Shown: piece by piece, positions 40,534 to 59,214 of the stretch
Layout: every line of letters starts with the position of its first letter
Numbering within the stretch: the stretch's first letter is position 1
NCBI GenBank assembly: GCA_000004695.1
Contig: CM000152.2
Location: forward strand, 2,240,001 to 2,304,000
Direction of reading: 5' to 3'
Length of the DNA: 64,000 bases
Source: Dictyostelium discoideum
Taxonomy: Eukaryota
Notes under the pieces: generated by a model
Databases searched by the model: none
The model's input: the letters and a program-made list of their open reading frames with translations, nothing else
Told to the model about the DNA's origin: nothing
Position numbers and translations under genes: made by a program

Positions 40534-43500
40534 TTACAACTGCTCGTCATTACCGTTTGGGGTGTTGAAAGATGAATTATTAGGTGATTCGAAATCATTA
40601 TTAGAATATTCAGAAGGTGAATTTGAGTTTGAATTATTTGAATTTTGGCGAGAATCGCTGATCATTGTTGATAATTTGGTACTGTTTCTATTTTTTGAAC
40701 CTCCGCTATTTGTTGGACTATTATCTGAACTTGTATTAATATTTCTAGCACGTTGTTCAAAACAATACAAAATACTAAATCCAGGAACGATTTCAGTGAT
40801 TATTAAACCAATGAAACTGAATATCATTGAATTTACATTTCCTGCTACTAAAATCAATACAAATACACAATGTAATAAAAATCCAATCGAACATGCAACA
40901 GTGAGTGTAAAAATTTTTCTTTGATGATTTGATTTTGAGCCCACTTTAATATTGGTTGAACGCATAACAATGAATAAACGGCCACCCAAGTAAATGAATG
41001 CTGCACCCATAATTAATGAAATTAATGCTTGAATCACCGCGTAAACAATACTAACTACACGTTGTGGTGTTGAACTTTCCACTGGAATTATAATACGCGA
41101 ACCACAATCATTACTTGGATCGGTATTGGTATATTGGAAAACTAATACAATGGCAATGAATAATAGGTAGAGGAATGCATTGATTACAAATACAATTGTA
41201 AATAATCTCTTTGATAAATTCTCAGCAGATTTATTCTTTTTCAATACCAAGAATACAATGACATACCAAAGTACTAAAAGAATATTAAATGCTGTAAAGT
41301 AAATAAATGTTGGTAATACCACTAGAATGTAATCGGCGATTGGACTATCAGATAAATTACCACTTGGCATAATAAAGAAATAAATGGCTCTAATTGTGAT
41401 AAATAGTGTTACGACACCAATTAAAAGATGGGTTAGTTGGAAATTTCTTTTTTCTGAAACAAACTGAGTTCTAACAATAAGACATAATTCAAATAAACCC
41501 CAAATTGAGACTACTGAAAAGAGAGCACCCAATGTATACATTAATGCTCTTGATGTTGAGTCGAATGCTTGTTTACTTTCATTTTCCCATTCATCCATTC
41601 GATTAATTGGGAAATAAATTGGATTACCACCTTCAATGGTAACAATTGAACATAACATTAAAACTTCATCTTTACCTGCAGTTACACTATCCTTTGAAAT
41701 TTGAGTGAATATTTTATTTGATTGAATTGGAGTTGGTGTTGTTGATTCACCATCGATTTGAACTGCAAAATCTAAAATTGGATATTTTGTGCTAGATAGA
41801 GATATTTTCAAACAAATGGTTGCTTCATTTATACCATCTTGTGATTTAATCATAATACCATCTCCTAATAATGTACCAATGATTGCATCATTAGAGTTTT
41901 TAACACCATATTTATCAGCTTTCTTATAGGATACGAAATTTGATGCTAATGATTCTTTTTGTGCTGATGTATAGATTTCTCTTGAAATTTGTGAAATTGA
42001 TAAAGATTGACAACTTTGAGAGATTGAATCATTTGAAAATTCAATTTTACCATAATCGAATGAAAATGATGAATTTACACCTGCGCATGGTTTAGTTTGA
42101 CCTAATAATGGTGTTGATGCAGTGAAACATTGTGAGCCACCTTTACCTGAACAACTACATGTAATTGAGTTCAAATTTGATTGTAATCTTTCCATACGAC
42201 AATATGCTTCTGAACGGAATAAATCTGCAACTTGAGTTTTTGCTGCTTTTGTAACACTCTTGTAGAATAGTTGATAATTGAATACACTATCGATATCATT
42301 TGGAATGAATGATTTCGCAGTATTCCAAACAATTGGTTTATAAACACCTGGTAACCATGTAGCTGCTTTCCATTGGAATTTATTTGTCCATTTATTGAAT
42401 GAGTCCATACAACCTTCACATAAATCTTGATCCATTTCATTGAATTGGTAGTTGAATGGTAAATTATTAACTGTTATAGTGGATTCTAAAATTTTACAAC
42501 CCATTTGTGATGTACATGAACTTTGATTTCTTGCCGGTATCCACCATACACCACCATCATCTTCACAACTAACTTTACTCAAGTAGTCCAATCCTAATGG
42601 ATAACAACCATTTGGTGAATCTTGTTGGGCATATGGTTCACAACTTATGCCACTAAATTTACCATGTGGGAATAAACATTTACCATATCCATCAGGATAA
42701 TTATAATTTCTTGTAGTGGCTTGATTGAAATAAAATTCATCAGAACAAATACCTGCTGTTAAACATTCTTGTTCAGTTTGACACTCAATTGGTTTTAATG
42801 AGCATAAACTTTGTTGAGCATCTGGACCAATGCATTCACCTTCAAGTTTTGTTGAACAATCTATCCATGTATAACCTGAACCAGCAGTAATACATTGTTG
42901 TTCATCTGTTGCAGATTTTAATATACAAACTTTTGCTTCGGTTGACCATTCAGTTGTACCTACAGGATTATCTAATGCTGCACAATTTGTGCTATTCATT
43001 CCGGTTTGTAAAATTGCACAATAATCATCTTGATTATTTGCTAAACTTGAAGAGCATTCATAACCACATGGTACTGAACATTTACCTTTAGAATTACAAT
43101 TACTTTCGCTTGTTGCTGTTAAATCATATTCACCATTTGGTAAAAGACAAATTTGATTTTGAGTTTGACATGATGTTTGATCTGTAAATTCAGTAGCTAC
43201 ATGACATTGAGTATCTTCATTTGTACAAACACCACAAAAATCTTTTAAAACACAAGCATCTTCACATGACTCTTCAATACCATTTTCAGTATATGTATTA
43301 TCACTGCATGACAAGTATGGACAAATACCCCAAGAAGTACAATTATCAAAATGTGATACTAATCTAAAATCCCAATATAAAAACATACTATCCAAACAAG
43401 TATCATGATGAGAAAGGCATGAACCATCCAAACATCCATTTGTTGAATAACATTGTTCTTTGCTGTATGATACTCTTGACCCCCATGTATATGTAGAACG

Positions 43501-56400: not shown

Positions 56401-59214
56401 ATACATTCTTGATGTTGAACTGCATAACAATCATCTACTTGGAATCCTGGTGACCAAATAAATGTTGAACGATCTTTAATATAATTATGACCAATACAAT
56501 CCTCTCTTATATGGTTATTGAAAACTTTAGTTACAACATCATCATTTACTGTTGTTGAACCTTCTAACAATGAGAATAATGTACCAGGTGATAAGTGTAA
56601 TAGTACACATTTTACATATTCAAAATCGATTGTATCAAAATCTGGTATACAAGTTCTTGAGTATAAATTACATTCACCATTTCCATATCCATTACAATCT
56701 GTATCATTTGAACAAAATGGTGATACTAATTTACTCTTGCAATCTCTTAAAACTGTAATTGATGTTAATTCTAATTTTTTAGGTTCAATTGATGGCACAG
56801 CACAATCATCAATACCAGTTAACGAACTACCATAATCTGATAATACTGATGAGGTACATTCTTGACTTGAACATTGTTCACTTACTAAACTTTTATTCAC
56901 CGATATGAATTGTGTAACATTTTTTAAAACAATTGATGGATTACAACATTGATAATATCTAGCCAATTCTGAACAACATGGGTCAGTTTTATATTCTGGA
57001 TCAGTGACGAAATGTGAACAATATTTTGTTGATATATTCTTTGCAACAGTTTCCATATGTAATAATGATAATGCTTTATTACTACAACCTATCCATGCAT
57101 CACTAATAGTCAATGAATCTAAACTATATCTATAATTATTTAATTCATCAATATCCGAAACATTAAATAGTGTTGTCTCTGTTTTTTCAATAAGTCCCAA
57201 AACTTTTTCAAATTCTGTATTATTACATTCTAAATTTTTTTCTTTAAAATTAATAGTTAAATCAATTGGCTAAAGTAATAATAATAATAATAATAAAAAA
57301 TAAATGTTAATAATTTTTTAAAAAATAAATGTTAATAATTTTTTAAAAAATAAAAATAAAAATTTAATATTATTATTTACATTATTATTTTCATCAAAAA
57401 TAGTTCCAAGGAATTGTAAAGATGATTCTAAAATTGTTGAATAATTTTCAATAAAATCACCACCAACTGAAAGAATAAATGCAACTTGAAATGATTTTGG
57501 TTTAAAAGTATTTAATGGTGGCTGTAAAATATTTAAATAGTTAAATGAAGTTGAATCAATGAAACGAGCAGATACTGGCCATAATGGATTTATATCGTAT
57601 TGTGGATAAATTGCGGTGAATGTAGTGCTAGTTGTAAAAGCTGCTGAATCATAATCAATAGTTGGCAAACGTAAACGTACACTATTAACCAATGCTAAAG
57701 TACCAGGTTGTGTTGATAATGATCCCAATGAATATCTATACCTATTACCTTGATTTGTAATTGAAAATGAATAATCTGTTTCATAAACTGTATATACACT
57801 TAAATAAATAATTAATGGTGTTGTACTATCAACTGGTTCCAAATATAATACCATATTATTTTCATCTAAAAAAAAAATAAAAAATAAAAAATAAAAAAAC
57901 AATTAATAAATTAATAAATTAATAAATTAATAAAATTATTATTATTTAAATACGTTACAATCTTGTTCTAATTTCCAAGTTGTATAACTGGCATTTGGAA
58001 ATATATATTCGTTTGAAATAAATATTGAAGTACTTTGAAAAATTGAAGGGAAATTAAAATAATAGAAACCAGCATTTTCAACTTGAAATGAATAATGTTG
58101 ATATTGATTATCTGTTAAGAAACCATAGACAACTTGACCAATAGTTACACATATATGGTCAGATGATACTGGTTGACAATTTGAAGTGTCGACAGGTTCA
58201 CTTGGTACATCATTTGAACGAATGATCATTTTAAAAGTATAATTGTTACTAAGTGGTTGAATTCTTAAAAAGTAAGTGTCACGACTCCAAGAATCTGTGA
58301 ATGTAAAATGTTCAGTTCTATTCCAATTATCTGATGGACATATATTGAATAACATATTTCTTTCAGGTGAAAAACCAGATGAATAACGTGAATAGCTTGA
58401 TGATGGTGTTTTACCATTAATATAAACTTGACCATATCCAGAGATTGGTAAAACTTTTAAAAATAAACCTTTACAACCAAATGAATCGGCTTTCATTCTA
58501 AAAAATAGATCCTCTGATGTAGTATAGATTTTTTCTGTATCCGATTCAATAGTTGTCCATTCGCCATTACAAATATTCTCAGTGACATTACATGCATTTG
58601 TACAACTTGGATCACGGATTTTCGGACATTCGTTCATATCTGTATAATCACATGTACAATCTATATTCTTATCACTTGGAATATCTGTACAATTATAGTT
58701 TGGACATCCCAATGAATCATATAAATAAATATCTTGATCAAATTCAACATCAATCAATGCATATGATAAATCGGTTCCCAATAAGTTAACATCTTTTTTT
58801 ATAATAGTTGACGATTTAACTTCAATACCTATTTACAATTATTTTAATTAAAAAAAAAAAAAAAAAAAAAAAAAAAAAAAAAAAAAAAAAAAAAAATTGG
58901 TATTTTTAGAATTTTTGATTTTCACGTTTTACAAAAAAAAAAAATAGTGCGAAAAAAAAAAACAGTGCGAAAAAAAAACAGTTCGAATTGTTTTTTTTTT
59001 TTTTTTTTCAGATTCCGTGTGGTAAAATAATTATAATTGTTTATTTTTTGATCTTCGTAAAAATAAAAAAAAATAAAAATAAAACAAAAAAGATAAAAAT
59101 AAAAAAAATAATAATAATGAAAAAAGAAATTAATTTACCTCTGATTTTATTTATAAAAAAAAGATGGAACGAAAATAAGAAAATGTAAAATATTACAATA
59201 TTTTTAACATTCAT
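53478..59214 (-). CDS. Giant 7TM receptor-like protein, paralogue C, same architecture: about 59139-59214; about 57966-58828; about 57381-57869; 53478-about 57268.
   Basis: Exon1 MNVKNIVIFYIFLFSFHLFFINKIR(G) has a GTAAAT donor. Exon2 GIEVKSSTIIKKDVNLLGTDLSYALIDVEFDQDIYLYDSLGCPNYNCTDIP...TWKLEQD has a GTAACG donor. Exon3 (acceptor ttttttag) ..ENNMVLYLEPVDSTTPLIIY...IFDENNN has a GTAAAT donor. Exon4 is the 1240-aa ORF MGLIEKTETTLFNVSD...; its real exon start lies upstream at the ..ctttag acceptor at about 57268. The 7TM region is about 95% identical to A and B. Confidence 0.7.

Follow-up and report, generated by a model that had tools for sequence, protein, structure and literature searches.

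Why should three neighbouring receptor genes be almost identical in some of their parts and highly diverged in others? This question is raised by a locus of Dictyostelium discoideum AX4 that lies within a stretch of 64,000 nucleotides (contig CM000152.2, positions 2,240,001 to 2,304,000; here called the window). Three tandem genes with the same structure of four exons, all on the minus strand, occupy positions 40534 to 59214. These limits, as given in an original prediction made from the sequence alone, are exact: the stop codon of gene A ends at position 40534, and the ATG of gene C begins at position 59214. We call the genes A (40534..46201), B (46922..52826) and C (53478..59214), and residues or blocks numbered with the letter A refer to the gene A protein. 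We consider it highly probable that the locus consists of three old tandem paralogues under recurrent, short-tract ectopic gene conversion that is limited to certain coding blocks, with the ends of the genes conserved by purifying selection. It is a clean but ordinary instance of regional gene conversion, i.e., a known process that is new in this uncharacterised family.

Each of the three proteins consists of a signal peptide (exon 1), an N-terminal domain of ~480 amino acids (aa; exons 2-3), a Cys-rich ectodomain of ~900 aa, a seven-transmembrane (7TM) region and a cytoplasmic tail of ~85 aa. We propose that they act as cell-surface sensors, each of which would combine its own ligand-binding head and its own cytosolic output with a common chassis of stalk and 7TM bundle.

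Alternation of diverged and homogenised blocks

We compared A, B and C in a protein-guided codon alignment, and calculated synonymous divergence (dS), non-synonymous divergence (dN) and their ratio, omega, by the Nei-Gojobori method with Jukes-Cantor correction. Between exon 2 and the stop codon, at least seven diverged and homogenised blocks alternate. The N-terminal ectodomain encoded by exons 2-3 is paralogue-specific (A22-483; 44435..45921, on the minus strand like all features of these genes; counterparts at 50996-52514 in B and 57381-58828 in C). Among the AX4 paralogues, amino acid identity in the N-terminal domain is 45-54%; the analysis block of this name, A22/27-507, extends 24 codons into exon 4 (to ~44233). 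Nei-Gojobori windows over most of codons 1-500 have paralogue dS values from ~0.5 to >2 and dN values of 0.3-0.7, and windows over much of exon 4 have paralogue dS values of 0-0.5. The homogenised parts of exon 4 are A808-960 (83-95% amino acid identity), A1151-1380 (82-90%) and the 7TM domain (A1435-1655, 40789..41451; 93-94%), the last of which is homogenised in all three copies.

Diverged islands occur inside this core. Two of them, A508-800 (43354..44232) and A961-1150 (42304..42873), were tested by bootstrap, as described below. The second is an unhomogenised, paralogue-specific island in the Cys-rich ectodomain, with 65-77% identity and a paralogue dS of 0.3-0.9, and the first is partially homogenised, in that windowed paralogue dS dips to 0.09-0.3 near A603-750. 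Amino acid identity (68-83%) and dS (up to 0.88 in AX4) suggest that the juxtamembrane segment A1381-1434 is a third diverged stretch. The tail (A1656-1739, 40537..40788) is paralogue-specific, with 42-65% identity. Conversely, exon 2 has a small homogenised patch, a Cys-knot, near its start (~A56-110): in this patch, the synonymous difference between paralogues is below the orthologue value, and there is a significant A-C tract.

The original prediction had divided the genes into a variable N-terminus and a homogenised core. The mosaic is real, also at synonymous sites, and the differing tails were correctly described. However, a split into two parts does not capture the alternating blocks, the islands in the core or the patch in exon 2. 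It had also been claimed that the Cys-rich module is identical in all copies. For A and C, exact runs bear this out. The first conversion tract, in the Cys-rich module (42932..43278), is an exact match of 347 nt between A and C (C: 55903-56249), and the second, in the membrane-proximal ectodomain within A1151-1380 (41810..42236), is an exact match of 427 nt (C: 54787-55213). Both runs stand in a background of ~13-20% divergence. For B, the claim fails: the peptide CGVCTNEDTQ...DDYCA, which lies in the first tract, is identical in A and C only and has 4 substitutions in B. At the DNA level, B differs from A/C by 104 per 1000 nt in the 347-nt run and by 73 per 1000 nt in the 427-nt run (7-10%). 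Shorter exact runs in the 7TM region connect A with B (41099-41208, 110 nt, B: 47574-47683; and 41222-41412, 191 nt, B: 47697-47887) and A with C (40910-41040).

We evaluated such runs with a GENECONV-style test, in which the order of the 1470 polymorphic ungapped sites was permuted; the 99.9th percentile of the null distribution was 14 sites. Four A-C tracts extend over 36, 31, 18 and 17 consecutive concordant polymorphic sites (P<=0.0002). The longest two correspond to the 347-nt tract (36 sites, P<0.0001) and the 427-nt tract (31 sites, P<0.0001). The permutations also gave an A-B tract of 8 sites (P=0.004) and a B-C tract of 10 sites (P=0.002). DNA similarity between the paralogues ends ~50 nt past the stop codon and ~70 nt upstream of exon 2, and exon 1 and the promoters are outside of it.

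Orthologues and selection in related genomes

We found syntenic loci in related genomes using the receptor proteins and the gene downstream of them. The loci are from D. firmibasis (L002 and L003, with all three copies), two strains of D. citrinum (L001, L007 and L009), D. dimigraforme (L008) and the D. discoideum or D. cf. discoideum isolates W (L004), Y (L005) and Z (L006). Gene order and the type of N-terminal domain are conserved across the loci: a C-type gene is followed by a B-type gene, an A-type gene and then the neighbour gene.

Orthologue dS for AX4 versus D. firmibasis is roughly level from block to block (0.41-0.76), leaving aside the short, noisy tail. Uniform synonymous divergence between paralogues would argue against conversion, and we looked for it, but paralogue dS is not uniform along the gene. 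In the N-terminal domain, the paralogues within AX4 and within D. firmibasis have dS values of 0.67-1.24, versus 0.47-0.76 for orthologues; those of AX4 by themselves have 0.67-0.92 there and 0.21-0.27 in the 7TM region. In the exon-4 ectodomain, paralogue dS in the same two genomes (0.18-0.35) is below orthologue dS, and in the 7TM region it is 0.16-0.27, versus 0.49-0.55 for orthologues. When these two regions are taken jointly, the ranges are 0.16-0.35 for paralogues and 0.41-0.55 for orthologues. In the tail, paralogue dS is ~1.0 for most pairs and 0.58 for Dfir_1/Dfir_3 of D. firmibasis.

Neighbour-joining trees of individual blocks, with bootstrap, are incongruent with one another. The N-terminal domain groups by orthologue with 100% support. 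Block A508-800 also groups by orthologue, at 98/78/71%. The sequences of A826-940 then group within genomes, namely A with C in AX4 (100%), all three copies in D. firmibasis (100%) and A with C in D. citrinum (93%). Block A961-1150 returns to grouping by orthologue (97-100%), and A1174-1314 again groups within genomes (range 97-99%), with A and C of AX4 at 98%, Dfir_1 and Dfir_3 at 99%, and A and C of D. citrinum at 99%. In the 7TM region, only the cluster of the three D. firmibasis copies is supported (99%). The tail groups by orthologue, with 100% for the A and B clades and only 52% for the C clade. The within-genome clades arise independently in AX4, D. firmibasis and D. citrinum. The role that the original prediction assigned to gene conversion, that of homogenising the core, is thus upheld by the significant tracts, by paralogue dS below orthologue dS in the blocks concerned and by switches of topology at 93-100% bootstrap, although the pattern is patchier than described.

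Individual strains carry their own homogenised changes. Strain Y has substitutions in the Cys-rich module that are common to its A and C copies (FADQAS/QSQ/EYNL), as does strain Z (DQVS/DCKSKG/NNEDD). Profiles of synonymous differences among paralogues correlate between AX4 and D. firmibasis (Spearman rho 0.75-0.81), whereas paralogue and orthologue profiles correlate only at rho 0.19-0.33. Given the similarity of the two paralogue profiles and their weak relation to the orthologue profile, the landscape of conversion is conserved, while the events are independent.

The N-terminal domain had been described as hypervariable and diversifying, and had been likened to self/non-self receptors. Comparison of orthologues does not support these statements. 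For gene A, identities in exons 2, 3 and 4 are 97.6, 98.2 and 97.5% to isolate W; 94.6, 98.8 and 96.5% to isolate Y; 91.5, 94.0 and 90.5% to D. citrinum; 88.7, 89.2 and 87.9% to D. dimigraforme; and 84.4, 88.1 and 84.3% to D. firmibasis. In the gene C protein of AX4 and Y, the N-terminal domain is 98.1% identical, and other blocks are 91.5-97.7% identical. The B N-terminal domain of AX4 is 93.2% identical to that of Y, 86.2% to that of Z and 66.9% to that of D. firmibasis. Overall, N-terminal identity between isolates is 86-98%; in A and C it is equal to or above that of other extracellular blocks, and in B the domain is among the least-identical blocks, comparable to A961-1150. Each head is conserved one to one between genomes.

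Omega between orthologues is 0.11-0.31 in the N-terminal domain, 0.13-0.27 in the exon-4 ectodomain (for true orthologue pairs), 0.05-0.11 in the 7TM region and 0.01-0.13 in the tail. No window of 75 codons in exons 2-3 reaches an orthologue omega of 1. Such a dN/dS well below 1 in these exons is what the original prediction itself had named as evidence against diversification. The sole excess of omega anywhere is found for a single pair in one window of exon 4, which has 8 non-synonymous changes and no synonymous ones. AX4 and isolate W differ by 12 non-synonymous changes in the 485 codons of the N-terminal domain and by 29 in the 898 codons of the ectodomain. The tails are copy-specific and nearly invariant among orthologues. 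The large paralogue differences at both ends of the genes are ancient and are kept by purifying selection. One oddity in a tail occurs in isolate W, whose A-orthologue (L004, ~9610-9615, alignment column 1811) has an in-frame stop about ten codons before the normal stop (SS*NTPNGNDEQL). This early stop would trim the extreme C-terminus, or it would be a sequencing error.

The block that changes fastest between orthologues of close strains is A808-960, in the Cys-rich module. For A, identity in this block is 87-93%, versus ~96% elsewhere, and it is 86.9% between the A copies of AX4 and Z. Within genomes, A and C are 93-97% identical there in AX4, Y, Z and D. firmibasis, and 87% identical in D. 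citrinum. Between AX4 and D. firmibasis, orthologue identity is ~80% in the homogenised Cys module, versus 86% in the unconverted N-terminal domain of A, and omega in the module is 0.2-0.5. Since the module is only modestly conserved between orthologues, conversion does not simply follow protein constraint. Tracts imported from paralogues, being counted as substitutions, probably inflate the orthologue divergence of the module.

Gene conversion and the alternatives

The following scheme very probably accounts for these patterns. The triplication predates the split between D. discoideum and D. firmibasis. Since then, non-reciprocal exchange in tracts of a few hundred nucleotides has repeatedly overwritten blocks between copies, such that their synonymous divergence stays below that of orthologues and the blocks group by genome. 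The homogenised segments are the Cys-rich module at ~A826-940, the membrane-proximal ectodomain at ~A1151-1380, the 7TM bundle and the Cys-knot patch at the start of exon 2. Exchange between A and C is the most frequent, though B sits between them. Ancient, copy-specific sequence persists in the blocks that escape: the distal beta-sandwich N-terminal domain, A508-800, A961-1150, the tail and, as judged from identity and dS only, A1381-1434. Two causes probably keep the boundaries in place. Diverged segments would no longer provide the homology needed to start or extend conversion, and selection would remove converted variants that erase copy-specific sequence for ligand binding or effector coupling. 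The data show the tracts, with statistical support, the conflict between tree topologies, the contrast in dS and the purifying selection on both ends of the genes.

Some points weigh against it. A small number of positively selected sites could escape pairwise and windowed omega. Among the closest isolates, available DNA covered only A-orthologues and the 3′ parts of B-orthologues, so the direction and date of single AX4 tracts are not set. In a genome of ~22% GC, Nei-Gojobori/Jukes-Cantor dS is near saturation in the N-terminal domain and the tail, which makes the paralogue omega there (0.36-0.54) imprecise. GC content at third codon positions (GC3) is 0.07-0.24 in converted blocks versus 0.06-0.33 in unconverted blocks, i.e., there is no systematic excess and no sign of GC-biased conversion. 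A rise in GC3 is a common corollary of gene conversion elsewhere, but not strictly a defining one, and weak GC-biased repair in D. discoideum may account for the flat GC3. Finally, we infer both the causes of the stable boundaries and the receptor function itself.

The original prediction combined conversion of the core with diversifying selection on a hypervariable distal domain, as in polymorphic self/non-self receptors. Low identity and indels among the paralogous N-terminal domains fit this idea, as do a paralogue omega above the orthologue omega, a few windows of 50 codons with paralogue omega >1 at the junction of exons 3 and 4, and the B N-terminal domain, which evolves ~2x faster than those of A and C (omega 0.29-0.31). 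Nonetheless, we regard diversification as improbable, because every genome examined has a 1:1 orthologue of each N-terminal domain (100% bootstrap), orthologue identity in exons 2-3 is at least that of exon 4, omega stays low with no window at 1 in these exons, and the changes between AX4 and W (12/485 versus 29/898 codons) are not concentrated there. A mosaic that arose without any conversion, from uneven purifying selection or local mutation rate acting on a constrained core and a relaxed N-terminus, could draw on the fact that the 7TM region is the most constrained part and on a correlation between the A/B paralogue synonymous difference and the orthologue non-synonymous difference (rho=0.67). 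We nevertheless give this possibility almost no credence: with orthologue dS about equal in all blocks, synonymous sites are neither constrained nor mutationally cold, converted blocks resemble each other more between paralogues than between orthologues, topologies switch with high bootstrap, the exact runs stand amid much greater divergence, and orthologues are better conserved in the A N-terminal domain than in the homogenised Cys module.

Another possible history involves no ongoing conversion; instead, partial duplication, unequal crossing-over or exon shuffling would have duplicated or swapped the 3′ parts later than the 5′ parts. A tandem array makes unequal crossing-over plausible, and one D. 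citrinum assembly contains a copy with a B head and an A body. Yet such a staggered history is very unlikely to explain at least seven alternating blocks, rather than one breakpoint, or within-genome clustering that recurs in AX4, D. firmibasis and D. citrinum with copy number and order unchanged. We first read the D. citrinum hybrid as an unequal crossover and then set this reading aside, since stops and a frameshift interrupt the hybrid, and the A-orthologue is intact on an alternative contig; the hybrid probably reflects a collapse during assembly. This event and the fused annotations at the locus in newer assemblies of related strains might raise the suspicion that the identical tracts in AX4 are themselves artefacts, created when reads of one paralogue were misplaced into another. 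There is hardly any chance of this, as the independent D. discoideum assembly ACTFIT encodes an identical A body, and B and C bodies that are identical save for the last three residues, at which the fused gene model of ACTFIT continues by splicing. In addition, these homogenised blocks recur in at least five other genomes and carry strain-specific substitutions of their own there.

Recurrent conversion between old paralogues might have a further layer, in which the patchwork itself is selected. The receptors might need an identical stalk and 7TM chassis, e.g., to form heteromers or to use a common co-receptor or transducer; conversion would then spread changes in A808-960 to all copies, and the heads and tails would be protected from it. 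We rate this extension as rather doubtful. If it is true, the locus would be a compact model of conversion boundaries shaped by selection in a haploid amoeba.

The closest parallels are TLR1/TLR6 and the clustered protocadherins. Mammalian TLR1 and TLR6 are tandem receptor genes with regional gene conversion (Kruithof et al. 2007, PMC2077338). As in the present genes, their distal ligand-binding part groups by orthologue, their membrane-proximal ectodomain and transmembrane/signalling region are closer between paralogues than between orthologues, and conversion is independent in each species in nearly the same region each time. However, the Dictyostelium locus has three genes and several alternating blocks, rather than a single 3′ region; its tail escapes conversion, whereas most of the TIR domain is converted in TLR1/6; and its protein family is unrelated and uncharacterised. 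The variable exons of clustered protocadherins in fugu, zebrafish and human exhibit regional sequence homogenisation (PMC1852091; Noonan et al. 2004 as cited there). These, too, are tandem surface receptors in which lineage-specific conversion homogenises the 3′ part of the ectodomain coding sequence, while the 5′ part stays distinct and can be used for orthology. In contrast to our locus, the converted regions of protocadherins have raised GC3 (PMC1852091), and there are dozens of copies that share a constant-exon tail, rather than three complete genes with copy-specific tails.

With its uncharacterised family of dictyostelid receptors, the locus adds a well-resolved case of regional concerted evolution outside of animals. 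For this family, orthology should be read from the N-terminal domain or the tail, as the 7TM/Cys-rich core would mislead into species-wise clusters. Distinct, conserved heads and tails on what appears to be a shared transducing body also argue against treating the locus as an allorecognition-type polymorphic system. The allorecognition genes of D. discoideum, tgrB1 and tgrC1, encode single-pass proteins with IPT/TIG repeats and are extremely polymorphic between isolates. They resemble the present genes in being adjacent genes for surface proteins in the same organism. Unlike them, the present genes encode 7TM proteins, with ectodomains that differ by 2-7% from those of W and Y (up to 14% for B in Z) and with omega values of 0.1-0.3.

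Annotation, protein domains and neighbouring genes

The models of the three genes, all on the minus strand, contain no internal stops. Gene A (DDB_G0279573) has exons 46201-46141, 45921-45037, 44937-44435 and 44304-40534, with GT..AG introns, and its protein of 1739 aa matches XP_641707.1 exactly. Gene B (DDB_G0279575; exons 52826-52766, 52514-51600, 51486-50996 and 50782-46922) encodes 1775 aa and matches XP_641708.1 exactly. The AX4 annotation cuts gene C in two, DDB_G0279579 (320 aa) and DDB_G0279577 (1421 aa). Both pieces fit end to end onto a merged model with four exons (59214-59139, 58828-57959, 57865-57381 and 57269-53478) and 1740 aa, in which they meet across intron 2 (57866-57958), whose donor, GTAACG, is non-consensus. 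The merged gene is collinear with A and B and, over exons 2-4, with its orthologues in D. citrinum and D. firmibasis. We correct the AX4 annotation by joining DDB_G0279577 and DDB_G0279579 into a single gene. All annotated products of the three genes are “hypothetical”, and a literature search for the four gene IDs (DDB_G0279573, DDB_G0279575, DDB_G0279577 and DDB_G0279579) found no paper that mentions them. Long (ATT)n/(TAA)n microsatellites fill intron 3 of A (44355-44425) and of B (50800-50930), and the introns are otherwise unalignable between the paralogues.

The locus is mis-modelled in several new assemblies, with fused proteins of ~5200 aa at five loci and a probable collapse at one. 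A single model that fuses all three receptors, of 5173-5288 aa, occurs in W, Y, Z, ACTFIT (protein P0040) and one D. citrinum strain (L007), and spans positions 1 to ~9700 in L004-L007. It is because of this fusion that the three receptors are missing from a protein search of the newer assemblies. The D. citrinum hybrid with a B head and an A body is found in assembly ACTFIU (L001, 16788-22159); exon 3 is missing from it, five in-frame stops interrupt it, and a 1-nt frameshift lies near 20403/20405. The intact A-orthologue (L009, 2265-8068), with the same downstream genes, is on another contig of this assembly, which is 21.8 kb long.

The 7TM region of all three proteins matches the Pfam family PF06454 (THH1/TOM1/TOM3), with 47 bits for A (E=3e-12), 52 for B and 41.6 for C against a cut-off of 25, and the match spans profile positions 3-258 of 273. 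An AF2 model of A562-1679 has seven long helices in the 7TM region, but with a mean pLDDT of only 48.6 it was too poor and was left out of the fold search and the domain assignment. The plant THH1/TOM1/TOM3 proteins have ~300 residues, with little beyond the 7TM domain, whereas the present genes add a signal peptide and an ectodomain of ~1400 aa. Our literature search found no described function for family members with this architecture. The N-terminal domain is a beta-sandwich whose structure resembles the PPC (pre-peptidase C-terminal)/collagen-binding-domain fold, a resemblance of fold only: exons 2-3 have no Pfam match at E<=0.1, PPC included, and no PDB sequence match at E<=1. Sequence searches of the ectodomain against Pfam, NCBIfam and PDB yielded no matches.

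The window has a G+C content of ~22%. In stretches of exon 4 (e.g., 42001-44000, 48001-50000 and 54001-56000) it is 0.31-0.33, versus 0.21-0.27 around them, which results from codon positions 1 and 2 of the Cys/Gly-rich sequence and not from GC3. A tRNA scan of the window found no tRNA genes.

The gene downstream of the receptors (38573-40186, minus strand) is annotated as a “polymorphic membrane protein repeat-containing protein”, and has faint matches to Chlam_PMP and beta-helix models. Its ORF (38576-40186) encodes a sequence with 100% identity to an AX4 protein, which identifies the window as AX4. The gene diverges faster than receptor A, with identities of 90/75/62% versus ~97/91/84% to isolate W, D. 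citrinum and D. firmibasis, respectively. On the other side, the intergenic region upstream of gene C (59215-62295) is ~3.1 kb long in AX4 versus ~1.2 kb in D. citrinum and D. firmibasis. Within it, two diverged copies of a direct repeat of ~290 bp (59892-60155 and 61939-62228) are 72% identical. Beyond this region, a conserved, divergently oriented neighbour with an MHD2 domain starts near 62296 and runs off the end of the window.

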